Positions 8,708 to 27,758 are shown, counted from the first letter of the stretch. The stretch: 64,000 nucleotides of DNA from Spirochaetia bacterium (GCA_965203055.1 OZ241863.1:576001-640000); one strand, 5' to 3'. Notes: generated by a model not told the origin, from the sequence alone. A program made the numbers and translations.

Positions 8708-9583
8708 GTGCGCGTGGTGCTGCAACAGGTCGATCTGGACACCTGCCTGACCGCGCTCCTGCTTGGCGCCGGCGCGGCTGCCGAGGTAACGGTGGCCCGC
8801 GACGGCGCGGCCCCGGCGGAACTGGCCGATCCGGCGGTGACGTGCATCGAGGCCGGCGGCTCGGGGCAGACGGAGCTCAACAACTTCGACCACCACGACG
8901 CCGCGGGTTCGTGGCCTCCCGCCTGCGTGCAGGCATCGCGCGCCGTCGGCGCGGCCGGCTCACCGGCGCTGGAGCGGCTCGTCGCCTACGTCGCCGAGGT
9001 GGACCTGGGCCGCGCCTCGGTCAGGGACTGGGAGATCGACGCGGACGGGAGCCTGTCGTTGGCGAGCGTCTTCTCCGGGATGCGGCTGACAGTTCGGGAC
9101 CCGCGCGAGCAGTTCTTCGCCGGCCTCGGCGTGCTGCGTACCGTACTGGAGGAGTCGATCGACCCGTTCGGTCCTATGCCGCCGCGTCCCGCATGGCAGG
9201 TCTACGCCGACGCCCACCGGCGGGAACGGGCGGCGCTCGCGGCGCTGCTGGACACCGCCGAGCGGTTCCCTACCGCCGGCGGCCGCACCGCCGGGTACCT
9301 GCGCACCGACCGCATCGGCGCGCTCCGGGCGCTCTACCGCTCCGGGTGCGACGTCGCCATCGCCTATGCGCCCGCGTTCCACCCGCCGGCCGGCGGCGCT
9401 CCGATCCGCAAGTTCACGATCGCCGGGCGCGACGGCCTGCGCGTCGACGGCTTGCTCGGCCCGCTGGCCGAGCGCGAGCCGGGCTGGGGCGGCCCCGCCC
9501 ACGGCACGATCATCGCCTCCCCGCGCCGCGGCACCGACCTCGACCCCGCCGAGATCAAACGCCTGGTGCGCGAGCACCTGTGA
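8708..9583 (+). CDS. DHH-like hypothetical protein, convergent on the end of the cas effector operon
   Basis: Motifs VDLDT, IEAGGSG..NNFDHH and C-terminal WGGP.HG.IIASPR. Confidence 0.55.
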   Translation: MRVVLQQVDLDTCLTALLLGAGAAAEVTVARDGAAPAELADPAVTCIEAGGSGQTELNNFDHHDAAGSWPPACVQASRAVGAAGSPALERLVAYVAEVDLGRASVRDWEIDADGSLSLASVFSGMRLTVRDPREQFFAGLGVLRTVLEESIDPFGPMPPRPAWQVYADAHRRERAALAALLDTAERFPTAGGRTAGYLRTDRIGALRALYRSGCDVAIAYAPAFHPPAGGAPIRKFTIAGRDGLRVDGLLGPLAEREPGWGGPAHGTIIASPRRGTDLDPAEIKRLVREHL

Positions 9584-9628: not shown

Positions 9629-10747
9629 TTACGTGGTTGGTTTCAACCCGGTCCGTGATTCGTTCCTGAACCAGTCATAGGTTGGATAGTGAATGGGGTT
9701 TCGAGGGTCGTTTGCTGCGTAGATCAGCATGGCGCGCAGCTCCCGCATGGTCCGATCGACGCGTGTTCGAAATGGTTCGGTGCGGCGGAGAAGTTCCTGA
9801 TTCAAGGCTTCATCTTCCCGGACTTCCGTAAGGTCCGCAGATTCGCTTCCGCGATAGCGGGCGCTGGGATCGGTCCGTATCTTCAACTTCGTAATGCGCA
9901 GGTGAACGGAACCGGCGCCGTGTGGTTTGGCGCCTCCCAGTTTGTGGCGCAACGGGCCGCGCAGAGTCACGCCTGCTTGATCGCTGGCGCGGCCGACGGC
10001 TGCCGCACTCAGCTCGACGGTACTCTGTTCTTCGAGTACCAGACAGTAGACGAGCAGGTCGAGTTCCTCCTCCCGCAGGTTCTCGAAATCCACGGTGAAG
10101 CGAAAACGGGTGCCCGGCGGTGCGGGTGTTACCGTCGCCGTCTGTCTTATATTCGGGTGCGGCCGCGTGAGCCGGTCCGCCTCGACGCGGTGATGATAGA
10201 GCTTACGCCGGTTATTTCTCGGATAGAAAGACTGGTGGGACCGTTTGGGCTGACCGACGGTAACAGGGTAAGCCGGCCACTGGACTGGCGCGAATGGCTC
10301 GGCCAGTTCGGCGTCGCTGAAGCGAACCAGTCCGGCAAAGGCGTTGCTGCCATCCAGATAGCCGAACATCCTGGCGACGACGTCGAGGCTCGAGTCGCGT
10401 CGCGCCATAGCCAGTTGATGCTGCCGGTCGACGCTCGCCTCACGGAACGGTACGGCGGCATTGCCTATGATTTCAGCCAGGGATCGGATGGCGCCTTTGA
10501 GAGACGTGGCCGGGAGATATGGCTGAGGGCCGCCGCGCCGGCCGCCGGCCGCGTTGCGTACTATATGGCTTACGAACTGCCCCTTACCGTCGCCGACGAA
10601 CAACGGCGTCAACGCTTCGAGTTCGCACCAGACACGGCCGGCGAGGCCATCAAGATGATGGTGATAGTGCGGAACGTCGTGCTCCACAGCTCGATCGCTG
10701 ACGGTGACCCAACGGTACGGATTCCAGAACCGTTCGCGTTCAGGCAT
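9629..10747 (-). CDS. cas7: Type III-D terminal Cas7-family RAMP (TIGR03986-like)
   Basis: FWNPY, ELEALTPLFVG, LPATSLKGAIRS, RRKLYHH, KLGGAKPHGAG G-loop. Confidence 0.88.
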   Translation of the reverse strand: MPERERFWNPYRWVTVSDRAVEHDVPHYHHHLDGLAGRVWCELEALTPLFVGDGKGQFVSHIVRNAAGGRRGGPQPYLPATSLKGAIRSLAEIIGNAAVPFREASVDRQHQLAMARRDSSLDVVARMFGYLDGSNAFAGLVRFSDAELAEPFAPVQWPAYPVTVGQPKRSHQSFYPRNNRRKLYHHRVEADRLTRPHPNIRQTATVTPAPPGTRFRFTVDFENLREEELDLLVYCLVLEEQSTVELSAAAVGRASDQAGVTLRGPLRHKLGGAKPHGAGSVHLRITKLKIRTDPSARYRGSESADLTEVREDEALNQELLRRTEPFRTRVDRTMRELRAMLIYAANDPRNPIHYPTYDWFRNESRTGLKPTT

Positions 10748-11336
10748 CGGGACCTCCGTCCGCGGGCTCCAGGTCGCACAGGCGCAGGAAATGCGGCTCG
10801 CCTACGTCGTCGCGCCACTGCTCGATGACCACCTTGACGTGGCGGCTGCCGCCGGCAATCGGATAGCGGAAGCGATGTGGAATACGCAACTCGATCCATT
10901 CGCCGGGGCTGGCTTCGGTTTGCTGTCCCCACAGGTAGTAGCGCTCCCGCTTCGGCTGCAGCCTGTCCAGGATGTCGGAACAGTCCGCCAGTGCACCGTC
11001 CGTCCAATTGGCGTCGCCGAGAAAGACGGTGCGCCAGCAGGTTTCGCCAAGCGACGCAATGACGCGCCAGCGCAATTCGCCGTCGGGCGCGAACAGTCTC
11101 CCCGCCGTGGAGCGGGACAGGCAACCGCCCGTTCGTTCTGCGATCGGCTCGCGGCCGGCGCCGCACCAATGGAGATCGCGTTCGACGCCGCGCCACCAGT
11201 CGAACGCCCAGCCATCGGCCGCCTCCAGCCAGATGCGGCGCGAAGCCGTGCCGTTGGGCGGCGGATCGAGATTCGTAATGAGATCCAGAAATCCGTTGCG
11301 CGTCAGGTCAGCCGCTCTCAAGCAAGCCACGGTCAT
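10740..11336 (-). CDS. csx19: Type III-D Csx19
   Basis: Position between cas7 genes; GRLF..DGELRWR, YYLWG, WIELRIP..F.YP, final F.RL. Confidence 0.8.
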   Translation of the reverse strand: MTVACLRAADLTRNGFLDLITNLDPPPNGTASRRIWLEAADGWAFDWWRGVERDLHWCGAGREPIAERTGGCLSRSTAGRLFAPDGELRWRVIASLGETCWRTVFLGDANWTDGALADCSDILDRLQPKRERYYLWGQQTEASPGEWIELRIPHRFRYPIAGGSRHVKVVIEQWRDDVGEPHFLRLCDLEPADGGPDA

Positions 11337-12301
11337 GCTCCCGCCCGCTGTCGAGGTTGCCGGTTGGGCGCCTGCCCTCCAGGTCCTCCGTGCCAGCGCA
11401 GGAATGCTTCGAACGCCGGCGTCAGTGACTGCAATCGCACGGACCAGTCGTCCAGAACGTACTCCTGGCGCAGACCGCGCGGCGCCGCCGCCGGCAACGC
11501 AACCGGATCCGCCGGCGTCCAGTCGTGCAGGCGGTATGCCTCCCGCTCCCCGGTCGTCGCCAGTTGCCCGATGCCGGCCAACGACTGCGCGGGATGCAGA
11601 TAGGCCAGCCGGAAAGACGCCACTTTGGCGCGTACTCGCCCCATGCCTCGGCTGCGCCCCGATCCCACGGCGATCATCTCGTCCTTCAGATCGGCGAGCA
11701 GCAGGTTGAGCCCCGCCAGTTGCCAGAGCTCGAAGTTGGTCAGCCGAATGCGCGCCTCGAACTTGCCCCCGACCACCGCCTGCAGGTCGAACAACACGCC
11801 TTTCACGGTGCCTCCCGTGAAGCGGTCTATGCCCACGCCGTTGCGAGACTCGGGCGTTGGAGCGCAGCCCGGCAGCGGGTACGCATCGCCGATGCTGAAC
11901 CGGCCCGCGAACTTCAACGAACCGAACAGGCGGCACGCTGCGCACGAGTCGGCGTACCTGGCGGACGCAGGATCAGCTTCCTCGCCGCGGGAACGATACC
12001 CGCAGCCGTAAGACTCTTTCTCGTCATCGACCGGAATCGAGATGTCGTTTCGCTTCGGGTCGTAGTATGGCAGGCAGACGCTCCCCGGCTGCAGAGTGCG
12101 GGCGATGCGCTCGAAGTGACTGCGCAGGACGCCTTTGAGCGACGAACCCGGTAGATAATAGACGCTCTCGCCGTTCAGAAAGGTCACGACCGGCACCATG
12201 TCGGCGTCACCGAGCGTCGCGTAGCCGCTCTTGACCAGTACCGGATCCACGGGTTCGATCTCAATCGTCACGTCTGCTTGGCACAGCCACTTTCGCAGCA
12301 T
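11333..12301 (-). CDS. cas7: Cas7-family RAMP (Csm3-like)
   Basis: YLPGSSLKGVLRS, CAACRLFGS, RNGVGIDRFTG, GSGRSRGMG. Confidence 0.92.
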   Translation of the reverse strand: MLRKWLCQADVTIEIEPVDPVLVKSGYATLGDADMVPVVTFLNGESVYYLPGSSLKGVLRSHFERIARTLQPGSVCLPYYDPKRNDISIPVDDEKESYGCGYRSRGEEADPASARYADSCAACRLFGSLKFAGRFSIGDAYPLPGCAPTPESRNGVGIDRFTGGTVKGVLFDLQAVVGGKFEARIRLTNFELWQLAGLNLLLADLKDEMIAVGSGRSRGMGRVRAKVASFRLAYLHPAQSLAGIGQLATTGEREAYRLHDWTPADPVALPAAAPRGLRQEYVLDDWSVRLQSLTPAFEAFLRWHGGPGGQAPNRQPRQRAGA

Positions 12302-12302
12302 G

Positions 12303-13130
12303 TCACTCCTCCTCCGGCGCCAGTCGCAGGCGGCGCTGAATATGATCGCCAAAGAAGCCTTCCCAATCGCCCAGGTCACTTAGGCGGTCGTCCGACGTGG
12401 TCGACGTCAGAAACGTGACCCGCTGCTCCGGGTCACTCAGATCGACCCCCAGCAGCTTGATTTCTTCTTCCAGATGGAACCGCCCGAGGCCGCGGCTGGT
12501 AAAGCCGCCGATGCTGCTACCCGAGCGCCACTCAAACAGCGCGGCGCCGAGCAGGGCCAAGTCCCGGTCATGCGGATTGTCGAGATCGATGCGCAGCTTG
12601 AAGCGGCTGCCGGGAGGAACCACCTCGTAATCGTACTTGAGGCCATCGGCCGCGGTCTGGCTGTCGCGATCGATCACCACTCCGTCACGCACCTGCACCA
12701 CGTTGGCCCACTCCTTCAGCATGCCGTCGCTCACCCGCAGGCGGCCGGCCTGGACCGGCGACCCGAACAGCTTGCACACATCGCAAGTGTGATCGTCGAT
12801 CCACCGCAGCCGCCCTTCCAGATCCTGAGACGCCTTTCGATATTCGTCACGCGCCTTCTGGTAGTATTTGACGTCACTCGTACAGTTCACGCCGCTTGCC
12901 TGATGGTCCAGCAGACAGGCGCTCAGGCCCAAGGCGTGCGCCAGCGTCTCGCAGGTGCTCCGCAGCCTCCCCTTGAGCGAAGACCCGGGCAGGACGGGCT
13001 GGCCGGCAGGGTCCAACACGACGCCCAGGTCGCTGCTCTCTCCCTCTCTGCCCGATCCGATCCGCCACGCCGTCTCGAACACCAAGTAGGCGGTGACACT
13101 GATCTTACGGCGCAACGCGAAGTCTCTCAT
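12303..13130 (-). CDS. cas7: Cas7-family RAMP (Csx7/Csm3-like)
   Basis: RIGSG, LPGSSLKGRLRS, CDVCKLFGS, RDGVVIDR, IGGFTSRGLG. Confidence 0.92.
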   Translation of the reverse strand: MRDFALRRKISVTAYLVFETAWRIGSGREGESSDLGVVLDPAGQPVLPGSSLKGRLRSTCETLAHALGLSACLLDHQASGVNCTSDVKYYQKARDEYRKASQDLEGRLRWIDDHTCDVCKLFGSPVQAGRLRVSDGMLKEWANVVQVRDGVVIDRDSQTAADGLKYDYEVVPPGSRFKLRIDLDNPHDRDLALLGAALFEWRSGSSIGGFTSRGLGRFHLEEEIKLLGVDLSDPEQRVTFLTSTTSDDRLSDLGDWEGFFGDHIQRRLRLAPEEE

Positions 13131-13551
13131 ATTCCTCGACCCCCAACCGGTACAAGGCGTGCGTACAGAAGCGTTCGAAAAACGCCGGGATGTGAGTCTG
13201 TTCCCACGCCTCCCGCCGCTTGCGTTGGCGGCGCCTGGTCTCCGTACGAAGTTCAGGCGGTGCGTGCTTGTCCCCTTCCACACGGACGGACCACCCGTTA
13301 CGCGAATCGCAGAGTCTTTCCACTAGTTGCCAGAATTGGACTTCTGACTGCTTGTTCTTTCGTTCTGCCCGAGTACGCTGACGTTCGGCGAAGTTCTTGA
13401 CTTGCTCCGGTTGCTGACGAGCAATCTGCCGCAGACCGTAGATCTGCGCTGTTTTCACGGGGAACTTTCGGATCTCGCCAAGCAGCGTATCGAGTTGCTG
13501 ACGAGCCTGGTCGCGGTAAACAGTATCGGACAGCAGATCGACTATTGTCAT
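13105..13551 (-). CDS. Small helical subunit, Cas11/Csm2-like (second copy)
   Basis: 148 aa, helical, KTAQIYGLRQIA..VKNFAERQ, translationally coupled within the operon. Confidence 0.6.
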   Translation of the reverse strand: MTIVDLLSDTVYRDQARQQLDTLLGEIRKFPVKTAQIYGLRQIARQQPEQVKNFAERQRTRAERKNKQSEVQFWQLVERLCDSRNGWSVRVEGDKHAPPELRTETRRRQRKRREAWEQTHIPAFFERFCTHALYRLGVEEYERLRVAP

Positions 13552-13958
13552 GCGCCGGCCTCCATCCGCTGCAATGCGAGTCGGTACAGGTATTCGCCGA
13601 CGACAGCCTGTACCCAGCCGCGGGCAAGCCGGAGGCGCAAAGCCATTCGGTCATATTCGTCCCCCGTAAGGTCCTGACTGAGCTTGCGCAACCGCGCAAG
13701 CTGCTTCAGCACGTCGTTACCGAGCGCCATCCACTTCTTGTCTCCCTTGCCCATCTGGTTCTTGACGAAGTCCTCGATGTCGGCGAACCGGGTGGCGGAG
13801 CAGGCGATCTGCTGCAGGTTGCGTACCTGCGTGCTGATCTTCCCCTTGTCCGAGCCGAATTCGTCAAAGAATCGCCTGCCAAGAGAGGAGAACTTCTCGT
13901 GGTTCTCGTCAAGGTAGCAGTCAACCTTGCCGATCAGGTCGGCGTTCAAGACGTGCAC
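13548..13958 (-). CDS. cas11: Small subunit Cas11/Csm2-like
   Basis: STQVRNL..IA......IEDFVKNQMGK..W pattern; position after csx10. Confidence 0.72.
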   Translation of the reverse strand: MHVLNADLIGKVDCYLDENHEKFSSLGRRFFDEFGSDKGKISTQVRNLQQIACSATRFADIEDFVKNQMGKGDKKWMALGNDVLKQLARLRKLSQDLTGDEYDRMALRLRLARGWVQAVVGEYLYRLALQRMEAGA

Positions 13959-15184
13959 GGCTGCGCCTCCTGCATGGAAAATCGACGGTGGAACTCATCG
14001 GACACCGACACTACGCCGAAACCCTCGTTGCGCCGCAAGCCGATGCCGTCCTCGACCAGCGCCGCGAGCCGCGGGATAAACGCGTCGCGTTGGCTTGGCG
14101 CGCCCTCGAATCGATAGACGTAGGCCGCGCCGCGCGCGACCGCCCACTCGTCCTGACGCGGCAGACCGTGAGCCGCGTTCCAGCCGCGGAGGCGCTCGTG
14201 CCGGGTGACCGCGGCGATCCAGCGTACCGTACCGCCAGAATCGAGGAGCCGGACCGCCCGATTCCGTAGCGGGAACGCAGTCGAGACAGGGGACATGTGC
14301 GGCAGCCATCCAACCATGTCCGCCGGGTCCAGGGAATAACGCAGAAACCGATCCACCATCACGGCGCCGGTCGGAAGTGAAATCGCGAAGAAGAAGCCGT
14401 CCGCCAAGTTCGTAATGGATAGCTTCCGCAGAAAGTTGCTCAGGTCGGCGTTCCATCGAACCCACCGATCGGCCTGCGAGCGCAGGTTCTCCGGCGCCGC
14501 CGGCTCTCCGAGCGTCACGTGCACGTCTCCGTAGCCGCGCGTGCGGGCATGGCCGACGGAAATGCGGCCCGCTTCATCCTGCAGGAGCCGCCGCAACGTG
14601 TCGAGCGCGTCGTCATCAGCCCGGAGCCAACCATGGAGATCGGCATCGTTTCCGGAGGGCGCCAGCGCTTCCAGGGTGTAGAAGATGGAGTCCGCGGCGG
14701 TGCCGGTCCGGCGGTCGATGCCCACGTGAGAGGCGACCTGCAGAGTGCTCGCCTTCTTACAAACGCGGCCGGACTCGTCGCGCCAGAAACCATCCTCCGC
14801 CTTCAAGTCCGCATCGCACTGCGCGCACTGCTGCCAGGCTTCCGCGCCGCCGGCCATCCGGCCCGCCGAGTAGTGTTGCGCGACGCGGAACCAGAGCAGG
14901 TCCACCAGGGCATGCTCAAGCCGTTCGTGCTTGCAGGAAGCCGCGGTCAGCGGGAATACCTGCGGAGCGGGGTCCAGCGGTCCGAAGCGGCAGGCGGCAT
15001 CGTTAAGAAACACCCGTTCGAAGGTCTCGTCAGTCCGCCCATGGCGCTGCAGGTAGAGCGATGCGAAGGCCCCGCGCACGAGAGTGCCCGCCACCGACCG
15101 GGCACTCCCAGAGCGTTCGGACTGCCGATCGCGCCTGATCGCCAACGGGGCAAGCAACCGCGCGGTGACAGAGACGATTTTCAT
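13946..15184 (-). CDS. csx10: Csx10 (Cas5-family RAMP of type III-D)
   Basis: GTLVRGA, HVGIDRRTG, VGHARTRGYG, GWN...GLPR, GIGLRRNEGFG. Confidence 0.85.
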   Translation of the reverse strand: MKIVSVTARLLAPLAIRRDRQSERSGSARSVAGTLVRGAFASLYLQRHGRTDETFERVFLNDAACRFGPLDPAPQVFPLTAASCKHERLEHALVDLLWFRVAQHYSAGRMAGGAEAWQQCAQCDADLKAEDGFWRDESGRVCKKASTLQVASHVGIDRRTGTAADSIFYTLEALAPSGNDADLHGWLRADDDALDTLRRLLQDEAGRISVGHARTRGYGDVHVTLGEPAAPENLRSQADRWVRWNADLSNFLRKLSITNLADGFFFAISLPTGAVMVDRFLRYSLDPADMVGWLPHMSPVSTAFPLRNRAVRLLDSGGTVRWIAAVTRHERLRGWNAAHGLPRQDEWAVARGAAYVYRFEGAPSQRDAFIPRLAALVEDGIGLRRNEGFGVVSVSDEFHRRFSMQEAQPCTS

Positions 15185-15924
15185 GCCATGTCTCCGCGCA
15201 GCTCGTCGATCCACTTGGCCCATTCGCCTCTCCATCTCGCGAAGCTGGTGAGGGAATACTCCGGGGTCTCGGTGGCGCCGTTCCAACGCAGTGACTCGAT
15301 ACGTACCTCGCACCTACCCAAACCGGTGCTCTTGTCGCCGCCCAGAGTATCCAGCGACAGCAGCCCAGCCACCAGAAGCGCATACTCGTAAGGGAACTCA
15401 TCATCGTCTTCTTGCGTCAGAACACCGCCGGGATGCCGGGCGCGGATGGCGCCTTGCAATTCGACATCCGCTTCGACCAGTTCCGTGGTAAACAAGTGTC
15501 GTTCCATGACCGTACCGGTGACACGATCGATGGCGGTGCGCGCGGCCACGGCCGGCGTTCCCTTCTCCGCCTTGCTTGGCACGGCGTTGGTCATGAACAC
15601 GCACTCACCTTGGTAGCGGCTGCCGAACAGTCGGTCGATCAGCAGCTTGGACTTGGCCAGTGGCCGGAAATGTTCCACGAGGCTCCGGTCGCCTTCTCCG
15701 GCGCCTGCATGCGGATCGACCGCTTCGAGGCCGAGCGCCAAGGCAAGCCGCTCGCACTGATGCCGCAGCACGCCCTTGACTTGCGAGCCCGGCACGAAAG
15801 GCGCTCCCGCTCCGCCGAGTCGCTGCTGCAAACGATCCACTGCGGCCGACCCGTAGCCGCTGCCGACGTGCCAGCGTCCGTTCCATGCGATGCGGTAACC
15901 GATGTCCAAGCGCTGCGGTTTCAA
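15181..15924 (-). CDS. cas7: Cas7-family RAMP
   Basis: WHVGSG, VPGSQVKGVLR, LFGS, RTAIDRVTG, LGGDKSTGLG. Confidence 0.9.
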   Translation of the reverse strand: MKPQRLDIGYRIAWNGRWHVGSGYGSAAVDRLQQRLGGAGAPFVPGSQVKGVLRHQCERLALALGLEAVDPHAGAGEGDRSLVEHFRPLAKSKLLIDRLFGSRYQGECVFMTNAVPSKAEKGTPAVAARTAIDRVTGTVMERHLFTTELVEADVELQGAIRARHPGGVLTQEDDDEFPYEYALLVAGLLSLDTLGGDKSTGLGRCEVRIESLRWNGATETPEYSLTSFARWRGEWAKWIDELRGDMA

Positions 15925-17585
15925 CGTCCGCTCTCCTCCTGAGTATCCGGAAACAGATCATAGGCATCTACGATGTCGGCCACGCACAGCGACCGTCGGT
16001 TGCCGGACTGAAACCACGGAAAGCAGACCTCATGGCCGGCGGGCTGCAGACGTTTCACGGCGTTCCACAGGGCACGGCGTTGCGACGGTTCGGCGCCATG
16101 CCGGGCGCGGGCGAAGATTTCCCGGATGCGGCGTTCCGCATGCTGCTCCCGGGCGGTGAGGGCAGCGTCCAGGAGCTCGTGCAGCTTGCTGCGCGGAAAG
16201 CTGGCCCGGCGTAACTCCCGGACCGCGGCGCGCACCTCCTGCAACTTCAATCGCGTCAGTGGTCGCAGTGTTCTCGGCGCTTTGTCGGTGTGATAGGTAC
16301 CCCTTCTTACGTCCTGGAGATCGAGGCTGTTGGCTCCGGCTACGACGTGAAAATCGATGCGGGCGGTGTCACGCTTCCCGTTCATGGCGTTTGGGCTGCG
16401 CTTGGCATTCTGCAGCAAGGCCGTGGCCAGGTCCAAAGCCAGGTAGAACGGATACGTGCTCCGGACGATGGCAACGCCGCAGGAAATCGTGAAGCCGTTG
16501 TCGCCCCGGTGCTCCCGGAAGAAGCGCCGGGCGCCGTCATCCGGCACGGCTTCGATTTTTGCGCGAGTGAGCCGCTCGAACTCCGCGGTGACGTGGCATG
16601 CGAAGTCGAGGGCGCGGTCGGCCGGCAGGGCGACCAGCAGATCATCGCCGCCAAGCAGCAGGACGTCGGCCGGCAGCGGAGGCGGCTGGCGGCCCCGATC
16701 GATGGTGTCTCGGATACGCTTGACATCGGTGCTCATAACCGCATCGAGGCCGGAGAAACACGCCTCCCGGATGCTCTCGTCGACGACCTTGCTGAAGTGC
16801 CGGCACGTCTCCGAGCTGTCCAGCGCCTGCACGACCTTGCCCATCGCGTTCCCGTCGGCGTACACCACACCGACGTAGTTGCGCCATGACGACCGGTCGC
16901 CGATAGCCGTCATGTCCGCGCACCGCAGAGCATGCCATTCCTCCTGCGGAGGCCATGGGCCGGCGCTTGCCAGATGTTCCATCCACTTGGACCAGACCGC
17001 CCCGGCGCGCGATTCCCGCCCTTCGCACGCCTTCCGATGGCTCGCCTCGGACAACATGGCGGCCCCTTCCGCGCCATGGTCCGTGAAGCGCGCCGCCGGC
17101 AGATGCGAGGCGGACCGACACTCCATGATCGCGGGCAGGGTGGAGGCGCCGTAACGACCGCCGCCAAACCCCCGGCGGCAGCGCAACTGGAAGTGGGCCC
17201 GGTCCACCGCGCAGCGGTACCCGCCGTCCGGCAGTGGCGCGATGCCGTAGGCCGGCCGCACCTCGCCCCCGGTCCGGTCACGGACGTAGCGCACCATGCG
17301 CCGGCAGGCGGACTCCACCGTGTCGGCGTCGCACTGCCGCACGATGAACTGCGCCGAACCGCCATTGGCATAGATCGTCTCCAGGGCCGCGGTTTCGAGG
17401 TGCTCATCGAGCACCCGCTCCATTTCGTGTCGATTCAACCGATCCAGCCAGGCGCTGGCCCCGCGCACCTCATTCAATCGATCCGTGCCGAACACGTAAC
17501 TCTTGATCGACGGGACATCGATCTGAACCAGGAATGTCCCGGTCTTTCCGGGATCACCGGCTTGGTTCACGGCTTCTCTCGACAT
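15921..17585 (-). CDS. cas10: Cas10 (type III-D, no HD domain, intact cyclase Palm2)
   Basis: IDVPSIKSYVF, YANGG, YADGNAMG, LLLGGDDLL, TISCGVAI; about 555 aa with no N-terminal HD domain. Confidence 0.93.
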   Translation of the reverse strand: MSREAVNQAGDPGKTGTFLVQIDVPSIKSYVFGTDRLNEVRGASAWLDRLNRHEMERVLDEHLETAALETIYANGGSAQFIVRQCDADTVESACRRMVRYVRDRTGGEVRPAYGIAPLPDGGYRCAVDRAHFQLRCRRGFGGGRYGASTLPAIMECRSASHLPAARFTDHGAEGAAMLSEASHRKACEGRESRAGAVWSKWMEHLASAGPWPPQEEWHALRCADMTAIGDRSSWRNYVGVVYADGNAMGKVVQALDSSETCRHFSKVVDESIREACFSGLDAVMSTDVKRIRDTIDRGRQPPPLPADVLLLGGDDLLVALPADRALDFACHVTAEFERLTRAKIEAVPDDGARRFFREHRGDNGFTISCGVAIVRSTYPFYLALDLATALLQNAKRSPNAMNGKRDTARIDFHVVAGANSLDLQDVRRGTYHTDKAPRTLRPLTRLKLQEVRAAVRELRRASFPRSKLHELLDAALTAREQHAERRIREIFARARHGAEPSQRRALWNAVKRLQPAGHEVCFPWFQSGNRRSLCVADIVDAYDLFPDTQEESGR

Positions 17586-17669
17586 AGCATGGCAGTTCGA
17601 TCCAGCGACTCGATCATACCGCCACACTCCACAAGGTGCAACGCCGTCATCTGCGTGATCTTCCCTGCG

Positions 17670-18896
17670 TCAGTCAGCAAGGCAGATTCTGAAAGCATCG
17701 TCCAGGGCGTCCCGTAGCCGACCGGGATCATCGAGTATTCCGCGGGACCTCCGTTGCGGACGGGTCGTGTGCGCAAGGGAGTTGCGGATGTGTTGGAGAT
17801 TCAGGTGGGCGAGCTGCCGCTCGCCGGCGCAGTTGGTTGTCAGCTCTATCGTGGCCGCCTTTCGAAGTTCTTCATCATATCGATATTGGTCGACAGGCCT
17901 TCCGTTACTCTGATTCTGACACCACCGGTTGATGCAGGCTTCCCAGCCCAACATCGCCGCGCGCACGAAGTCGTGGCGGTTCAGGTATTGGTAAGCGAGC
18001 TCCCGCTGCCGTTGCCACGGCTGGCCTTGTTTCACCCACCGCAGCCGCTTCTCCAACTCCTCCTTGAACAGACCGGACGCTCCACCGAGCGGTGCGGCGC
18101 GCTCCGACAGATAGGACAGGAACGTGCGCACTCTGTTCTCGGCGGCAGGCACGTTGAGAATGCGTTCGTAGAACGACGCGTTCGTCAGGCACCTGGCCTT
18201 ATCATACGGCACGCCGTCTGCGACGAGCAGCGGTTCGAACATCCCCAGGTCCCCGGTCGCGTCATACCGTTCCAGCGCCGCCACCCAACGCCTGACGCGG
18301 ACCAGTCCATCCAGCTTGAGCACCGGCGTGATTCCTTCCCGCGTCATGTCCACAGCGCCGTACCACAGGTCCTTGACCTCGAGACTACGGACGCGCTCCA
18401 GCATGAAGGCCGACAGGAAACCCACCATGGCGAGATGGCGGAACCCGTGCGTAAGGTCGAAACTCACGGTGCCGTCCGGTACCACCTTCGGATCGGCGAT
18501 GGTGGCAAGGATGCCGTACTGCTCACCAAGAGACTCCCCGTACGGTATGAGACGCGGTAGTACGTCGCAACGAGTCCGCTCTTTCATGAGCGGCGTTACG
18601 CGGTCAAGGAGGTCCTGGTCGACGGCAGACTTGGGCTCGGCCTCCAGCAGCTCGATACGCGCTTCCTCGTACTCGTCGCCCTCCTGCGTCGCCACGTGCT
18701 CGACCAATGCGCCCCACTGACTGCCGCGCGTGCCAAGTATCACGATCGCATCCGGCTGCAGATGCTCTGCCAACGCCAGTCCGAAGAACTCGGTTTCCTT
18801 CGTGGTTCCGTCGGGAAACAGATAGTTGGCCTTGCGATATGGCGTTTCCTTTGTATCCCTGCCTCGCCCAAGGAACGTTACCACCGTGTGCTTCAT
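17670..18896 (-). CDS. csx1: Csx1-family CARF-HEPN ribonuclease (TM1812/TIGR02221-like)
   Basis: TFLG, Y.KANY.F, ILGT.GS.W, DLTHGFRH CARF motif, C-terminal HEPN RNSLAH; GGAGG SD. Confidence 0.9.
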   Translation of the reverse strand: MKHTVVTFLGRGRDTKETPYRKANYLFPDGTTKETEFFGLALAEHLQPDAIVILGTRGSQWGALVEHVATQEGDEYEEARIELLEAEPKSAVDQDLLDRVTPLMKERTRCDVLPRLIPYGESLGEQYGILATIADPKVVPDGTVSFDLTHGFRHLAMVGFLSAFMLERVRSLEVKDLWYGAVDMTREGITPVLKLDGLVRVRRWVAALERYDATGDLGMFEPLLVADGVPYDKARCLTNASFYERILNVPAAENRVRTFLSYLSERAAPLGGASGLFKEELEKRLRWVKQGQPWQRQRELAYQYLNRHDFVRAAMLGWEACINRWCQNQSNGRPVDQYRYDEELRKAATIELTTNCAGERQLAHLNLQHIRNSLAHTTRPQRRSRGILDDPGRLRDALDDAFRICLAD

Positions 18897-18962
18897 TGCG
18901 CCCTCCAATGTGGGTTTGAGTCCGTCCCGCCTGTTTGGACTTCGACGGTAGCACGATAATTC

Positions 18963-18982
18963 TAAGCAATTTCCGTGCCATC
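18963..18982 (-). promoter_or_regulatory. Sigma-54 (-24/-12) promoter P1 for the csx1-cas10 effector operon
   Basis: Minus strand GATGGCACGGAAATTGCTTA contains TGGCACG-N4-TTGCT exactly; about 70 bp upstream of the csx1 ATG. Confidence 0.88.
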
Positions 18983-19111
18983 GTCGAGAGTCTACCGGCG
19001 AAGCCTGCACAGAACAGCGGAGTCGCCACTCGGTAGGTCGCTTTCATGGCCGCGCGCTCGCCACCGCCGGATCAGCGTGCCCGACCTTTACCATAGGCCG
19101 ACTCGCCCTGG

Positions 19112-19160
19112 ATTGCAACGGGTGTCGCAATAAATCTTCCATTCATGTAACGTATGTTAC
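19112..19160. promoter_or_regulatory. Two inverted repeats, candidate activator/operator sites
   Basis: ATTGCAAC-GGGT-GTCGCAAT (19112-19131) and GTAAC-GTAT-GTTAC (19147-19160) in an AT-rich patch 130-180 bp upstream of P1. Confidence 0.45.
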
Positions 19161-19261
19161 GATCACGGCCAACCTGTTCCGGCCACTGAGCAATGGCACG
19201 GCTGCAGGCTCTTCATGCGGTGCCGCCGGCGTGGCTGCGGAATTGGGAAAGGAGGACGACG

Positions 19262-20761
19262 ATGCGTAGCATCCTGATCAGTTGGATCGGCAATACGGAC
19301 CTGAAAGCGTCGCAGGGAGGCGCGGAGGGTATCGGACCGGTGGCCAAGGCCGTGGAGGACGGTACGTACGACGACGCCTTTCTGCTCACCACGTATGGCG
19401 ACGAGGCGGAACGCTACCGAGAGTGGCTCGAAGGGCGCGCGAGCGGGATCAGTCTCCACCTGCTGCACGAGCGGCTCACCAGCCCCACGGCCTTCGGCGA
19501 GGTCTACCCAGCCGCGGTCCGCGCCTGCGAACGGGCGCGCGCGGCCGCCGGTCCGGGCGCCGCGCTCACGTTCCATCTGAGCCCCGGCACGCCGGCCATG
19601 TCCGCGGTGTGGATCATCCTGGCCAAGACGCGCTTCGAGGCAACGATCATCGAGTCGTCGAAAGAGCACGGCGTCCGGGAGGTCTCCGTCCCCTTCGACA
19701 TCTCGGCTGAGTTTCTCGCCGATCTACTGCGGCAGCCGGACCGGGATCTGGAACGTCTGAGCGCCGGGCTGCCGCCGCAGGCGCCCGCCTTCGACGAGAT
19801 CGTCCATCGCAGCCCGGAGATGCGGCGCGTCATTTTGCTCGCCCGGCGGGTCGCGCTGCACTCGGTGCCGGTTCTGATCGAGGGAGAGTCCGGCACGGGC
19901 AAGGAGCTGATGGCGCGGGCCATCCACCACTCGAGCCCACGACGGGAGGAACGGTTCATCTCGGTCAACTGCGGCGCAATACCTGAGAATCTGGTTGAGT
20001 CGGAGTTGTTCGGCCATGAGAAGGGCGCGTTCACCGGTGCCGTCAAGATGCGAAAGGGGCACTTCGAAGCCGCGAGTGGCGGAACGCTATTTTTGGATGA
20101 GATCGGGGAGCTGCCGCTTTCGGCGCAGACGAAGCTGTTGCGCGTCCTGCAGGAAGGGACGGTCCAGCGTGTCGGCAGCAGCGACACGCGTTCAGTAGAC
20201 GTGCGCGTCATCGCGGCGACCAACCGTACCCTGACGGAGGAGGTCGCACGCGGCCGGTTCCGCGAAGACCTCTTCTATCGTCTGGCGGTGGCGGTGCTCA
20301 AGCTGCCGCCGCTCCGCGAGCGCGGCGGCGACGTCGGGCCCATGACGGATCATCTTCTCGTCCAAATCAACCGCGAGTTGGCGAAAGCTCTTGGTTATCG
20401 GCGCAAAAGCCTTTCCGCTTCGGCAAGGAATCTTCTTACTCGGCACCCGTGGCCGGGCAACGTACGCGAGTTGCGCAACACGCTGATGCGCGCCGCGCTC
20501 TGGTCGGCGGGCGACATCATCACGGGGGACGACCTGCGCGGTGCGCTGCTATCGGCGCTCGGCGACCGCAAGCGGGACGTGTGGGACCGTCCCTTGGGCG
20601 GCGGTTTCAGCATCGAGGCGCTGTTGGCGGAGATCAGGCGCCATTATCTGAGCCGCGCGATGGAGAAGGCCGGCGACAACAAGACCAGGGCAGCCAAACT
20701 ACTGGGACTCCGCAGCCATCAGACGCTCAGCAACTGGCTGAAACAGCACGCGGCGGAATGA
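19262..20761 (+). CDS. RtcR-like sigma-54-dependent activator (CARF-like N-terminus, AAA+, Fis-HTH)
   Basis: N-terminal SWIGNTD..GP and FHLSPGTPAM; GESGTGKE, FGHEKGAFTGA, FLDEIG, RFREDLFYRL, WPGNVREL; NKTRAAKLLGL; AAGGAGG SD. Confidence 0.9.
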   Translation: MRSILISWIGNTDLKASQGGAEGIGPVAKAVEDGTYDDAFLLTTYGDEAERYREWLEGRASGISLHLLHERLTSPTAFGEVYPAAVRACERARAAAGPGAALTFHLSPGTPAMSAVWIILAKTRFEATIIESSKEHGVREVSVPFDISAEFLADLLRQPDRDLERLSAGLPPQAPAFDEIVHRSPEMRRVILLARRVALHSVPVLIEGESGTGKELMARAIHHSSPRREERFISVNCGAIPENLVESELFGHEKGAFTGAVKMRKGHFEAASGGTLFLDEIGELPLSAQTKLLRVLQEGTVQRVGSSDTRSVDVRVIAATNRTLTEEVARGRFREDLFYRLAVAVLKLPPLRERGGDVGPMTDHLLVQINRELAKALGYRRKSLSASARNLLTRHPWPGNVRELRNTLMRAALWSAGDIITGDDLRGALLSALGDRKRDVWDRPLGGGFSIEALLAEIRRHYLSRAMEKAGDNKTRAAKLLGLRSHQTLSNWLKQHAAE

Positions 20762-20779
20762 TGGCACGATTATTGCTTA
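20760..20779 (+). promoter_or_regulatory. Sigma-54 (-24/-12) promoter P2 for csb2C-cas1-cas2
   Basis: GATGGCACGATTATTGCTTA, consensus TGGCACG-N4-TTGCT; abuts the activator stop codon. Confidence 0.88.
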
Positions 20780-20833
20780 TCAGGTATTGAGGGCCGAGTT
20801 CGGAACGAGCCGTCAGCCCCGGAGGAAAGAATC

Positions 20834-20914
20834 ATGGCGCAGGACGTAGAGAAACTACTGACGACGACTAGCACCCACGCCAACCCGCCTCGCGGCCCGC
20901 GGAGACGCGCGTGA
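20834..20914 (+). CDS. 26-aa leader ORF or gene remnant (MAQDVEKLLTTTSTHANPPRGPRRRA)
   Basis: Strong GGAGG SD at 20821; its TGA overlaps the GTG of the next gene (GTGA). Confidence 0.45.
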   Translation: MAQDVEKLLTTTSTHANPPRGPRRRA

Positions 20915-21642
20915 CCGGCGGGCCGGCGCGCGCGGCGCGGATGCCGGATTGCGTGCGCTTTCGTCTCACCGGCGACCGGCTCCCGACTGCGCGCCTGGGG
21001 CATCAGGTCGCCGAACGCGCCCGCCGCGCCGCGCTCGGCCGGGCACGCATGATGTACGGACCGGACGGCATACCCGCGGCGCTGTCGGGCCACGGCGCCC
21101 AGGCCGGCGCGCCGGCCCTGGAGCACCGGCACGCCTTCTGGCTGCCGGAGGATGCCGACGGCGACGGGCGCATCGACCATCTCACCGTGCACGCCCGGGC
21201 GATGGACGGGACGGCGCTGGCGGCGCTGTTGGCCGCGGACATCGCCGTCCATGCACGACGCGAGCACTGGCGCGCAGCCTCGGACTGGATCGGCCGCCAT
21301 GACGAGCCGGACATCCCCACGGCCCTGCTGGAGGTCGCGGTCGAATGGGTCTCCGTCGCTCCCTACTACCGGCCGTGGCACGCGAAGCGCGGCTTCTCGC
21401 AGGACGACATGATCCGCCGCGAATGCGCCGCGCGCGGTCTGCCTCCGGTGACGGAGGTGGAGTTGATCGGCTCCGGCGCCGCCCCGCCGCGCTGGCGCTG
21501 GCGCGAAAGCGCGCCGAAGGGGAACGGCCGGGGCACGGCGTGGCGGCTGGTCTTCGCCGCGCCCGTGCGCGGGCCGCTGGCGTTCGGCTACGGCTGTCAC
21601 TTCGGCCTCGGCCTGTTCGCCCCGGAGTCGGGCGATGCGTGA
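20911..21642 (+). CDS. csb2: Cas6-like crRNA processing protein resembling the C-terminal half of type I-G Csb2
   Basis: LSGHG, H.HAFWLPED.DGDGRIDHL.V, W.S..PY, GPLAFGYGCHFGLGLF; only 243 aa. Confidence 0.8.
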   Translation: MTGGPARAARMPDCVRFRLTGDRLPTARLGHQVAERARRAALGRARMMYGPDGIPAALSGHGAQAGAPALEHRHAFWLPEDADGDGRIDHLTVHARAMDGTALAALLAADIAVHARREHWRAASDWIGRHDEPDIPTALLEVAVEWVSVAPYYRPWHAKRGFSQDDMIRRECAARGLPPVTEVELIGSGAAPPRWRWRESAPKGNGRGTAWRLVFAAPVRGPLAFGYGCHFGLGLFAPESGDA

Positions 21643-22678
21643 CGCCGACCGGCGCGACCGCGCCGCGGCCATCCGCCATCCGGTCTACGTCAACAACCAG
21701 GGCGCGCGCATCGGCCTGACCGGTCACACCCTCGAGGTGGCGATGCTGGACAAGCGCCGGCGCCGGCACCTGCGCCTGGACGAAATGTCCGAAATGACCG
21801 TCATGGGCAACATCCAGGTAACCACGCCTGCGCTGCAGGAACTGATGCGGCGCGGCATCCCGGTGTGCTGGACGACCTCCTCCGGCTGGTTCCTGGGCGC
21901 CACTTCCGGCTTCGGCCACGGCGATGGCGCGTTGCGCGCGGAACAGCACGCCGCCGCCGCCGACCCCGCGCGCCGCGTCGCCTTTGCCCGCACTTGGGTG
22001 GCCGCCAAGATCCGGAACTGCCGCACCCTCCTGCGCCGCAACGGGAGCGGCCGCGAGGCGAAGATCGCAGTGCGTCAACTGACGGAACTCGTGGAAAACG
22101 CGGAACGCACCGCCGATCTGGACAAGCTGCGCGGCTACGAGGGCGCCGCGGCCGCCGCCTACTTCAGGACCTTCCCGGCCATGCTGCGCGGGCGGGCGGC
22201 CTGGGCCGCCGAACGGTACCGGGGCCGCAACCGCCGGCCGCCGCGCGATCCGGTCAACGCCGCGCTCTCCTTCGCCTACGCCGTCCAGACCCGCTCCTGG
22301 AGCGTCGCCGTCACCGCCGCCGGACTCGATCTGTTCACCGGGTTCCTGCACGGCTTCCGGCATGGTCGTCCCGCGTTGGCGCTCGACCTGATGGAACCGG
22401 CGCGGCCGCGGATCGCGGATTCCGCGGTCCTGCGCATATTCAATTCGGGGATGCTGAAAGCCGGCTACATGGAACAGGAGGGCAACGCAGTCCTGCTCGG
22501 CGAGCAGGGCCGGCGCGTCCTGCTGGACGCACTGGAAGACCGGCTGGACGAGTCGAGCCTCCACGACCGCCTGGGGCGGGCCATCATCTACCGCGACCTG
22601 CCGTCCATCGAAGCCGCCCGCCTCGCGCGCGCTCTGCGCCGCAACGACGAGCCGCCGGCGCAGATGAGCTGGCGGTAG
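21635..22678 (+). CDS. cas1: Cas1 (type I-G-like, no Cas4 or RT fusion)
   Basis: PVYV..QGARIG, LRGYEG.AA..YF, RNRRPPRDPVNAALS, GFLH, PALALDLMEP.R. Confidence 0.95.
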   Translation: MRDADRRDRAAAIRHPVYVNNQGARIGLTGHTLEVAMLDKRRRRHLRLDEMSEMTVMGNIQVTTPALQELMRRGIPVCWTTSSGWFLGATSGFGHGDGALRAEQHAAAADPARRVAFARTWVAAKIRNCRTLLRRNGSGREAKIAVRQLTELVENAERTADLDKLRGYEGAAAAAYFRTFPAMLRGRAAWAAERYRGRNRRPPRDPVNAALSFAYAVQTRSWSVAVTAAGLDLFTGFLHGFRHGRPALALDLMEPARPRIADSAVLRIFNSGMLKAGYMEQEGNAVLLGEQGRRVLLDALEDRLDESSLHDRLGRAIIYRDLPSIEAARLARALRRNDEPPAQMSWR

Positions 22679-22693
22679 CAGCGGAGCGTCCTC

Positions 22694-22969
22694 ATGCCGC
22701 CTGCCGGAAGGGACTACCTGGTAGCCTACGACGTTTCGTCCCCCAAGCGGTGGCGCCGGGTCTACCGGCTGCTGCACGGTTACGGCGACTGGGTTCAGCT
22801 TTCCGTGTTCCGGTGCCGGCTGGACCCCCGACGCCGCCGCCGGATGGAGCAGGAGCTGCGCGCCGTGATGGAGACCGCCGAAGACCGGCTGCTCATCGCG
22901 CGGCTGGAGGAGGACGGACAAACGGCCGCCGACCGGGCGAAGTCGGATCGACGGGCATTGATCGTGTAA
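22694..22969 (+). CDS. cas2: Cas2
   Basis: YLVAYDV..PKRWRRV...L.GYG..VQLSVF.C. Confidence 0.95.
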   Translation: MPPAGRDYLVAYDVSSPKRWRRVYRLLHGYGDWVQLSVFRCRLDPRRRRRMEQELRAVMETAEDRLLIARLEEDGQTAADRAKSDRRALIV

Positions 22970-22981
22970 CCGCCGCGCGGC

Positions 22982-23609: not shown

Positions 23610-23639
23610 CGCTACCTACGTTTTTGGAAGTGCCCGCCC
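23606..23639 (+). repeat. Isolated, degenerate ISKra4 right end
   Basis: CTGACGCTACCTACGTTTTTGGAAGTGCCCGCCC versus CTGACGCTACCTACGTTTTGGAAGTGCGCCC at 49213-49243. Confidence 0.8.
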
Positions 23640-23897
23640 TGTGGTGTTGCCAAATAACCGGATGTGGCATAGGGTAGCCGTCAAGCAGGCGTCTTTGACA
23701 GAGCGACCGAGCCGGAGGGGTGTGCTGCTGATCCTTCCGGATTCCGCTCGCGTCGCACGAAAGCGTTGCCGCCAAGGGAGATATGGCAGATAATCCTGAG
23801 TGAACGTCCAGTTGAGGGGTCCGATTGCTCGTCATGGCTGCCTCCGCTCGCGGGACTTGAGATTTGTGCTTGCAGATCATGGGGTTGCGGGACGGCA
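23640..23897 (+). promoter_or_regulatory. Putative CRISPR leader
   Basis: Non-coding, lower-GC stretch between the cas2 region and the conserved end of the array. Confidence 0.6.
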
Positions 23898-25497
23898 GTC
23901 ACCAGCCGCGCGAAACGCGCGGCCCTATTGAAACACACGCTTGGCCTTGGTCAGGTTGACCCGGATGAATGATGTCACCAGCCGCGCGAAACGCGCGGCC
24001 CTATTGAAACCAGGCGGAACGCGATGCAATCGTCATCCCCGCGTGGAACGGTCACCAGCCGCGCGAAACGCGCGGCCCTATTGAAACTCATGGCGTCGGG
24101 GAGAGTGGCGTCCGCCCGCCAGGAAAGTCACCAGCCGCGCGAAACGCGCGGCCCTATTGAAACTTGATCGCCTTGTCGATTGCTTCTACGACATCATCCT
24201 GGTCACCAGCCGCGCGAAACGCGCGGCCCTATTGAAACCTCCTTGACCTGCTCATCCGTGATCAACCCCATGTTGTCACCAGCCGCGCGAAACGCGCGGC
24301 CCTATTGAAACTTTAGAGACAGAAAAAGAACCTGAATAAACTACATACCGTCACCAGCCGCGCGAAACGCGCGGCCCTATTGAAACACGAATCTTGTTCG
24401 CCTTATAGGCCCGCTGAGTGGAAGTCACCAGCCGCGCGAAACGCGCGGCCCTATTGAAACACTGCGAATGGGAGACGATGTCTTCATCGACCTGATCGGG
24501 TCACCAGCCGCGCGAAACGCGCGGCCCTATTGAAACGCTTCGGCGATCTTGCCGTTGCCGAGAAACGTCTTGGCGGTCACCAGCCGCGCGAAACGCGCGG
24601 CCCTATTGAAACTTGTACTCTGCAAGCTGATCTAAGATCTCTGTTCGACGTCACCAGCCGCGCGAAACGCGCGGCCCTATTGAAACCCGACAGGAACGTT
24701 CGTCTCATTGAACTTGGCCGCCGAGTCACCAGCCGCGCGAAACGCGCGGCCCTATTGAAACGTGGGGACGCCGATCCACACTATGGCGCGGCAGGCGCGG
24801 GTCACCAGCCGCGCGAAACGCGCGGCCCTATTGAAACCTCCTTGAACGCTTTCGGTATACGTATGGGCAATACGAGTCACCAGCCGCGCGAAACGCGCGG
24901 CCCTATTGAAACGGTATCGGAAGTTTCGCCGCCCCCGGTGGGAGGTCACCAGCCGCGCGAAACGCGCGGCTCTATTGAACTCCTTCGGCGCCGCAAGGAC
25001 TCCGAACGGATTCTTGAGGTCACCAGCCGCGCGAAACGCGCGGCCCTATTGAAACCTGGGCGCGGTCACGATCACGTGCTCGCCGCTATGCGGTCACCAG
25101 CCGCGCGAAACGCGCGGCTCTATTGAAACTCCTTCGGCGCCGCAAGGACTCCGAACGGATTCTTGAGGTCACCAGCCGTGCGAAACGCGCGGCCCTATTG
25201 AAACCTGGGCGCGGTCACGATCACGTGCTCGCCGCTATGCGGTCACCAGCCGCGCGAAACGCGCGGCTCTATTGAAACTCCTTCGGCGCCGCAAGGACTC
25301 CGAACGGATTCTTGAGGTCACTAGCCGCGCGAAACGCGCGGCCCTATTGAAACCTGGGCGCGGTCACGATCACGTGCTCGCCGTTATGCGGTCACCAGCC
25401 GCGCGAAACGCGCGGCTCTATTGAAACGCCGCCCGCGCCGCGCACACGCACGCCCACCCGGCCGCCTGTCACCAGCCGCGCGAAACGCGCGGCCCTA
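23898..25497 (+). CRISPR. CRISPR array, 22 repeats (last truncated to 30 bp) and 21 spacers of 32-40 bp
   Basis: 37-bp repeat GTCACCAGCCGCGCGAAACGCGCGGCCCTATTGAAAC with 8-bp hairpin GCCGCGCG-AAA-CGCGCGGC and ATTGAAAC handle; variants accumulate at the distal end. Confidence 0.99.
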
Positions 25498-27628: not shown

Positions 27629-27758
27629 TCTTTTTCTCGTCCGGCCCAATCCTACCCACAACCCGCAGCAACGTTCAACCAGAGCATCGAGCGAGCGTCC
27701 CGGACGGAGCCGCGCCGCGCTTGACGCCGGTGCGGTTCCGGTACATTCTGATTCACGG

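Follow-up and report, generated by a model that had tools for sequence, protein, structure and literature searches.

How CRISPR-Cas immunity of type III and the uptake of new spacers are turned on in the course of an infection is an open question that can be studied at a locus in a 64,000-nucleotide stretch of a Spirochaetia bacterium genome (GCA_965203055.1 OZ241863.1:576001-640000), hereafter called the window, in which positions are counted from the first letter. Between positions 9,629 and 22,969, the gene of a CARF-domain sigma-54 activator (the regulator) lies between a type III-D effector operon on the minus strand and a cas6-cas1-cas2 operon on the plus strand. An initial annotation of this DNA had proposed that the regulator induces both operons through twin divergent sigma-54 promoters, as a positive-feedback circuit of the CRISPR locus. 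Our analysis suggests that this proposal was half right, in that the wiring is well supported by sequence comparison but its origin appears not to be CRISPR-specific. An alarm signal probably induces this form of immunity, and we lean somewhat towards the explanation that a mobile defence cassette with a PspF2-type activator, normally heading restriction-modification (R-M)-like operons, was recruited by the CRISPR locus in the host family. The locus is a compact, testable unit: it has named promoters and candidate enhancers, natural variants of it exist (self-activating, regulator-less and box-less), and the ligand of its sensor is open to assay.

Two exact sigma-54 boxes face the cas operons

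The regulator and its putative control sites are arranged as follows:

18965..18980, minus strand: P1, sigma-54 -24/-12 box facing csx1-cas10
19127..19160 (19127-19140 and 19147-19160), no strand: tandem palindromes RYAAS-N4-STTRY, candidate P1 enhancer, 150-180 bp upstream of P1
19194..19209, plus strand: decayed third sigma-54 box facing the regulator, -24 element intact, -12 element reading CAGG
19262..20761, plus strand: PspF2-type sigma-54 activator with CARF, AAA+ and putative helix-turn-helix (HTH) domains, 499 amino acids (PADLOC RtcR_PspF2, E 6e-194)
20411..20437, no strand: rare-codon island inside the regulator gene, core GCAAGGAATCTT, candidate P2 enhancer, about 340 bp upstream of P2
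20762..20777, plus strand: P2, sigma-54 box facing cas6-cas1-cas2

The pattern TGGCAC-N5-TTGC is matched exactly at 18966-18980 (minus strand) and 20762-20776 (plus strand), in agreement with the two operon-facing boxes read initially. The 64 kb thus hold two such matches where 0.09 would be expected, and none of 100 shuffles reached two. Only the exact pattern is informative; the one-mismatch scan, which still gave 2 sites in 64 kb against 4.97 expected, is not. The 20-mers of P1 and P2 are identical at 17 of 20 positions, as had also been noted. The host genome (4.56 Mb) contains 9 exact matches to the pattern; with a box score over 9 positions, built from the sigma-54 consensus, 6 sites score 9/9, another 25 score 8/9 and 474 score 7/9, and P1 and P2, both scoring 9/9, are two of the six full matches. 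The sigma factor itself is available to the host, the lack of which would have undermined the proposal: rpoN is present and intact (G000:C1:111074-111565, E 7e-50), with an open frame of 472 amino acids.

P1 lies upstream of csx1, whose start is at 18896, and the first base of P2 is the base right after the TGA of the regulator. The description as twin divergent promoters holds for the opposite operons that they face, but not for a shared position, since the two boxes are 1.78 kb apart, one on each side of the regulator, and neither transcribes the regulator. The counterpart of the decayed third box is intact in the family genomes G010, G011 and G015, where it faces the regulator, and in G012, where it faces cas6. 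Because the regulator-facing box of the window has no -12 element, direct self-activation of the regulator seems to have been lost there, while it is apparently intact in three relatives. The region 18810-19261 is covered without any difference by an independent contig from another study and is therefore not an assembly artefact; two sequencing runs contain strains in which another stretch replaces 18896-19090.

The regulator is a PspF2-type activator with a CARF-like sensor

The AAA+ domain of the regulator (PF00158, E 2e-72; Foldseek matches to NtrC1/ZraR-type structures) carries GESGTGKE at residue 208, GAFTGA at 255, FLDEIG at 277 and RFREDLFYR at 332, and has the Walker A, GAFTGA, Walker B and arginine-finger elements of an enhancer-binding domain. 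The Walker motifs and intact GAFTGA loop of the initial annotation were recovered in this way; its Fis-type HTH was found only as a weak HTH_8 match (19.5 bits where the cut-off is 22, E 8e-4), and a model of the C-terminus has three helices at 451-496. The identity given at first, RtcR-like, had to be replaced by the PspF2 subfamily, for which PADLOC gave 644 bits, compared with 244 for PspF1 and 186 for RtcR; the N-terminus alone matches the PspF2 profile with E 4e-41. RtcR proper was ruled out by PspF2 being the best PADLOC match and by an NCBIfam RtcR score of 342.7 bits, under the cut-off of 650. In addition, no rtcBA genes adjoin the regulator, whose neighbours are csx1 and cas6.

A structural model of residues 1-180 (predicted local distance difference test, pLDDT, 84) bears out the CARF fold that had been proposed for the N-terminus. 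Its closest structure is E. italicus Csm6 (Foldseek E 1.3e-7), with Z 17.7 and a root-mean-square deviation of 2.1 over 139 residues to 6TUG, and the first 22 matches of the fold search are CARF or CRISPR-associated proteins. By this model, the N-terminus is a CARF fold. No RtcR structure was among the matches listed, so RtcR and Csm6 cannot be ranked against each other there.

Boxes are kept across rearranged CRISPR loci

Comparison of five CRISPR loci of the host family showed that cas6-cas1-cas2 stands behind a sigma-54 box in 5/5 and the interference operon in 3/5. The boxes score 8-9 of 9 across these rearranged loci while their flanks diverge, and the regulator is intact in all four loci where it is adjacent. 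G010 (L044) has the same III-D operon, with boxes facing csx1 and regulator-cas6-cas1-cas2 and none at the stop codon. G011 (L042) has a III-B operon without a box facing it, and G015 (L043) has another III-D type with no box of at least 8/9 before the interference genes; both have boxes before and after the regulator. The genome G008 (97% complete, one contig) carries a homologous III-D operon (54-79% identity) and has neither a PspF2 match nor a box before csx1, and no box precedes the cas operons of three III-B loci that lack an adjacent regulator. Homologous loci keep the boxes, as the initial annotation required, and the operon of the regulator-less genome has none. Together with the palindromes described below, these comparisons support the sigma-54 control of both operons that it had put forward: the regulator very probably drives P1 and P2, and the control appears most firmly established for the genes of processing and adaptation.

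In G015, the DHH-like gene contains a 7/9 site that was set aside, as it recurs in the coding sequence of homologs. Between the upstream box and the regulator, G011 has a small membrane-protein gene of the DUF1232 family (L042:9993-10289), of which G015 has a decayed copy (L043:10000-10260). The III-B locus of G011 also encodes a CARF7-RelE (Cami1-like) effector with a coiled-coil tail (L042:17259-18767).

A possible second CRISPR-linked lineage is G898 (phylum of an Acidobacteria record), where a PspF2 gene (E 1e-155) and a III-D operon lie tail to tail; at the opposite end of this CRISPR locus, a small open reading frame (ORF) and a MYG1-like gene stand behind a 9/9 box. This appears to be a weaker case, because its 7/9 boxes before cas10 and cas2, which were not counted, are about as frequent as chance would give (the host genome has 474 sites of this score), and its divergent box faces non-CRISPR genes. 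Among relatives of G898, no further CRISPR-linked PspF2 was found (2/41 genomes with a match). Its adaptation operon has a PrimPol (CAPP-like) gene between cas2 and cas1 (L319:2207-4132).

Candidate enhancers accompany both promoters

The tandem palindromes upstream of P1 are common to 5/5 aligned intergenic regions. Allowing at most one mismatch, RYAAS-N4-STTRY occurs within 200 bp upstream of 33/71 regulators, compared with 10.6 +/- 2.7 in 200 shuffles, an excess that is overstated, since about 13 of the tested loci had served to define the pattern and kin are not independent. The upstream palindrome is often at -43 to -53 from the regulator. The second candidate lies inside the regulator gene, where codons 377-391 are the single rare-codon peak in 12 family genes (2.57 versus a mean of 0.97, standard deviation 0.26); three other host activators score 0.78-1.28 at the same place. 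Its core resembles the intergenic half-site and was found at 31/34 loci with a stop-codon box versus 4/44 without; when only proteins with an identity of at least 48% are considered, a limit set post hoc, the counts are 31/34 and 4/15. In G010, where the stop-codon box is absent, the core is degraded. From these patterns we infer that the palindromes and the intragenic core are binding sites of the regulator, and an enhancer kept within coding sequence would be an unusual design. Across the whole genome, 8 pairs of palindromes were found, none of them at the CRISPR locus, the pattern being too strict for the first site, and no regulon can therefore be named.

The cassette is shared with restriction-modification-like loci

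To place the locus among its relatives, we searched genomes, plasmids, viruses and metagenomes, read the flanks of the 93 related loci to a maximum of 10 kb per side, and classed their neighbours by tblastn with chosen query proteins; Pfam and record annotation of the nearest neighbours agree with these classes. Nine loci are shorter than 10 kb, two pairs are near-copies, and some regulators are PspF1-like or more distant. The full-length-alignment scan of metagenomes caught generic AAA motifs, mostly of unrelated activators, and only L068 and L112 were kept from it; the first viral scan was unreliable beyond its top 8 rows, and an N-terminal scan gave the same 8 contigs. A search of representatives gave 316 clusters at E 1e-30, without context information.

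Restriction-modification, methyltransferase or BrxL matches stand beside the regulator at 49/93 loci, and the same cassette heads many R-M operons across several phyla. Cas genes are near 4/93 loci, and one further locus has an array but no cas genes; the array near L246, with no cas gene between it and the regulator, was left out of the counts. Among 81 full-length regulators (12 partial loci dropped), a box of at least 8/9 lies within 25 bp of the stop codon and faces downstream in 31, a box of at least 8/9 lies on some flank in 53, and a box facing back from downstream occurs in none. Because stop-codon boxes and R-M-like contexts recur among the relatives, P2 is, by this comparison, a fixed part of a general defence cassette and not a CRISPR invention. 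In a quick midpoint-rooted tree of 71 proteins, the window regulator and three CRISPR-locus family members form one clade (Shimodaira-Hasegawa-like approximate likelihood ratio test, SH-aLRT, 100), sister to methyltransferase-linked paralogs of the host family, with G898 separate. The idea of a circuit specific to CRISPR found no support in this survey, in which the cassette is mostly found at R-M-like operons and also occurs without detectable Cas10.

At ten family loci (L045-L054) the cassette stands ahead of a giant N6-methyltransferase-like gene, mostly followed by an AAA-type NTPase gene; the regulators of L047 and L053 are broken. Another recurring cargo is an ARPP-1 domain gene, which the divergent sigma-54 box faces at L005, L008, L012 and L268.

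Proposed mechanism

Sigma-54 promoters stay closed without an enhancer-binding ATPase. By this biology, both promoters of the locus would be closed until a ligand binds the CARF domain. The cassette would consist of the PspF2 activator, the sigma-54 box at its stop codon and the palindromic binding sites; upon ligand binding, the AAA+ domain would oligomerise on the intergenic palindromes and open P1 for csx1-cas10 and the III-D effector, and on the intragenic site and open P2 for cas6-cas1-cas2. The ligand would most likely be shared with the non-CRISPR relatives, as an infection or RNA-damage product, for example RNA or short oligoadenylate with a 2',3'-cyclic phosphate end. The products of Csx1, Cas7 and Cas6, like degraded cyclic oligoadenylate (cOA), end in a cyclic phosphate, and with such a ligand, induction of these enzymes would amplify the response indirectly. 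The feedback through HEPN-made RNA ends suggested by the initial annotation is a plausible hypothesis.

Several observations weigh against this reading. A weak sigma-70-like site (18987-18959, 9 of 12) overlaps P1, the intragenic site sits in conserved protein sequence, and the palindrome excess has the bias given above. In G012 (L232), the same operons stand back to back with boxes of 8/9 and 9/9 and no regulator between them, and the only PspF2 gene of this genome is about 970 kb from the CRISPR locus, at a methyltransferase locus; as both boxes are kept without an adjacent regulator, they would be served by another activator or by the distant paralog. Moreover, the regulator N-terminus has no RtcR-profile match at E 0.1, and the nearest solved folds of the sensor are Csm6 proteins that bind cyclic hexa-adenylate (cA6), with Z 17.7 and 16.2, so the ligand of RtcR cannot simply be transferred to it.

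The G012 boxes for cas6 and csx1 lie within L232:9873-10262 and offer a natural test of action in trans.

Which signal does the regulator sense?

We give even chances to a ligand that is an RNA-end-type signal shared across the family. RtcR binds tRNA halves with a cyclic phosphate and oligomerises (PMC7790460), and the pocket motifs are common to CRISPR-linked and other PspF2 members. cOA is not the family-wide ligand, since the cassette mostly heads R-M-like operons and occurs without detectable Cas10; with 4/93 loci near cas genes, the family as a whole does not depend on a Cas10 locus. No match to the Cas10 palm was found in 6/12 family genomes carrying a PspF2 gene, although misses are possible with this profile, which gave one true Cas10 only 1e-7; four of the six have an intact cassette and are 94-95% complete in 1-4 contigs.

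Direct binding of cOA is unlikely, but it is the alternative that survives best. CRISPR-linked regulators would here have been retuned to bind Cas10-made cOA, so that target recognition induces the interference, processing and adaptation genes. The closeness of the CARF model to E. italicus Csm6 (EiCsm6) speaks for it, as do window residues N11, T12, T44 and T110, which align with EiCsm6 Asn10, Thr11, Thr39 and Thr114; Asn10, Thr11 and Thr114 are needed for cA6 sensing or turnover (PMC7101355). T44 is common to four CRISPR-clade members, whereas the methyltransferase-linked family paralogs have Asp or Asn there. However, N11 and T12 vary within the CRISPR clade (N/H/H/F and T/A/A/T), the position of EiCsm6 Gln116 is Ala in the window regulator, and T110 does not vary among the 36 aligned members, whether or not they are linked to CRISPR. 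A CARF RNase is present at all four family loci with an adjacent regulator and at G898, which also places a PspF2 gene of a second lineage beside a III-D locus; yet the family is mostly at non-CRISPR loci. Csx1 is a cyclic tetra-adenylate (cA4) effector and mixed cOA use is reported to be very rare (PMC11229360), so that a pocket of the cA6 type would be out of keeping with this effector. If P1 were fully closed, there would also be no Cas10 to start the loop unless there is basal expression. The shared-end and cOA readings partly converge, since RNase products and degraded cOA both end in a cyclic phosphate. Turnover of cA6 yields such ends as well (PMC7101355).

A broader version remains quite tentative: CRISPR-linked PspF2 proteins would be direct receptors of Cas10-made cOA or of its linear cyclic-phosphate products, forming a sigma-54 route from type III signalling to transcription that was recruited more than once from an R-M regulator and couples interference to spacer acquisition via enhancers, one of them inside the activator gene.

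It is improbable that the regulator drives the promoters but senses another nucleotide or a partner protein, comparable to RtcA/RtcB at the RtcR CARF domain. Binding of RtcAB to this domain has been reported (PMC9650030), phage-specific nucleotides have been suggested as ligands (PMC4012209), and most family loci have no RNase among their annotated neighbours, but no partner gene is conserved beside the regulator across contexts and the pocket motifs of oligonucleotide-binding CARF domains are kept. Finally, that the regulator is a mere passenger, with boxes that are relics or serve another activator and cas genes that run from sigma-70 promoters, is very improbable: sigma-70-like sites at P1 and the array leader (4 found versus 2.2 by chance), the G012 boxes, the box-less interference operons of two family loci and the strains with a different stretch at 18896-19090 would fit it, but not the boxes kept over five loci with diverged flanks, the joint absence of PspF2 and box in G008, or the intact regulator in all four adjacent cases.

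If a recruited PspF2 cassette is the right explanation, its ligand, once found, would explain an alarm switch common to innate and adaptive defence.

Cas operons, array and neighbouring genes

The operons facing the two promoters and the features next to them are the following:

8708..9583, plus strand: orphan gene of DHH/MYG1-like type with the motif NNFDHHD, in convergent orientation to the III-D operon
9629..10747, minus strand: cas7 (TIGR03986-like RAMP; profile matches)
10740..11336, minus strand: csx19, III-D signature (TIGR03984 E 4e-6, below cut-off; PADLOC Csx19)
11333..12379, minus strand: cas7 (Csx7-like; profile matches)
12303..13283, minus strand: cas7 (Csx7; TIGR02581 above cut-off)
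13548..13958, minus strand: cas11 (Csm2-like, III-D small subunit; PADLOC E 9e-7)
13946..15313, minus strand: csx10 (Cas5, III-D; TIGR02674 E 3e-41)
15181..15924, minus strand: cas7 (profile matches)
15921..17627, minus strand: cas10 (PADLOC Cas10 E 6e-65; GGDD palm motif at 326)
17670..18896, minus strand: csx1, CARF2-HEPN RNase (PADLOC CARF2--CARF_HEPN E 2e-123; motifs DLTHG and RNSLAH)
20834..20914, plus strand: 26-codon ORF behind a GGAGG site, its stop overlapping the cas6 start (GTGA)
20911..21642, plus strand: cas6-like, C-terminal half of type I-G Csb2, stand-alone (TIGR02165 E 4e-18; PADLOC Cas56g E 2.5e-43)
21635..22678, plus strand: cas1 (Cas1g-like, without Cas4 part; profile matches)
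22694..22969, plus strand: cas2 (profile matches)
23766..23794, plus strand: sigma-70-like site in the array leader (9 of 12)
23898..25504, plus strand: CRISPR array with 22 repeats (37 bp long, ending ATTGAAAC; the last is degenerate)

On the minus strand, the order of genes is csx1, cas10, cas7, csx10, cas11, cas7, cas7, csx19, cas7. The operon is of type III-D by its cas10 with GGDD, csx10, csx19, cas11 and several cas7 genes; csx10 and csx19 are under their NCBIfam cut-offs, yet are the best matches. No HD pair was found within the first 120 residues of cas10, and no solved structure related to the window Csx1 was found by sequence. The cas6, cas1 and cas2 genes belong to type I-G-like families, and the 26-codon ORF before them is probably a remnant. 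The array probably has its own sigma-70 promoter, and the supply of CRISPR RNA would then be separate from P2, because a sigma-70-like site lies in the leader and no sigma-54 box scoring at least 6/9 was found in 22900-23950.

The gene at 8708..9583 has no Pfam, NCBIfam or PADLOC match and no viral relatives were found; a lead is that MYG1_exonuc annotates 17% of one protein-atlas cluster. It accompanies three CRISPR loci of the host family, with homologs at those of G011 and G015, and a distant MYG1-type gene is present at G898 (homolog coordinates L042:18804-19679, L060:1656-2534 and L319:8472-9317). It is possibly an accessory phosphoesterase, and may be an uncharacterised off-switch nuclease for a second messenger or RNA ends.

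The gap between cas2 and the leader of the array holds a Uma2-family gene (22982-23609) that seems to be split over two frames; the gap is shorter in relatives. At the distal end of the array (24978-25441), the same two spacers occur three times with 96-100% identity, which indicates duplication inside the array. An ISL3 transposase gene (26589-27854) lies just past the array, and G011 has one at the matching side. Two long inverted repeats (579-762 and 49294-50045; 114 nucleotides at 92% and 80 nucleotides at 99%) are about 49 kb apart.

Relation to known systems

The name PspF2 reportedly goes back to Makarova et al. 2020, which may already list CRISPR-linked members. The window regulator is a member of the RtcR_PspF2 family (PADLOC PDLC01995, E 6e-194; PMC4012209), which is described beside R-M systems, whereas the targets here are cas operons. 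Makarova et al. 2014 count the RtcR-like family with those that do not typically occur close to cas genes, and the available part of that paper gives no promoters or binding sites for RtcR-like regulators (PMC4012209). The RtcR protein of the rtcBA RNA-repair operon shares the CARF-AAA+ architecture with a putative C-terminal HTH, the sigma-54 mechanism and, as a working model, ligand-gated oligomerisation (PMC7790460, PMC9650030), but the window regulator is below the RtcR cut-off (343 versus 650 bits), has no RtcR-profile N-terminus and adjoins no rtc genes. For the RtcR-like regulators of CoCoNuT systems, HEPN-made cyclic-phosphate RNA ends have been proposed to feed back on the regulator (PMC11090510); in contrast to the window, these are type IV restriction systems without CRISPR, and the feedback is a hypothesis only.

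Among CARF transcription factors, Csa3 (CARF-winged HTH, cA4-binding) likewise controls cas adaptation or interference genes (PMC8844856, PMC10013973), but it is archaeal and has neither an AAA+ domain nor a link to sigma-54. CalpL-CalpT-CalpS and DdvA-DdvS also tie a defence signal to transcription at type III loci by an alternative sigma factor (PMC11229360, PMC11506125), though through anti-sigma release of an extracytoplasmic function (ECF) sigma factor and not through an enhancer ATPase that works with sigma-54. Transcription regulators were left for later work in a survey of type III loci (PMC11229360), and a full-text search, with most subscription papers beyond its reach, found no publication in which cas genes are driven by a sigma-54 activator with a CARF domain. 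Published work already includes this class of regulator, the sigma-54 role predicted for it at restriction loci and the idea of feedback through HEPN products; added by the present analysis are the candidate enhancers, intergenic for P1 and intragenic for P2, and the apparently decayed self-promoter of the regulator.

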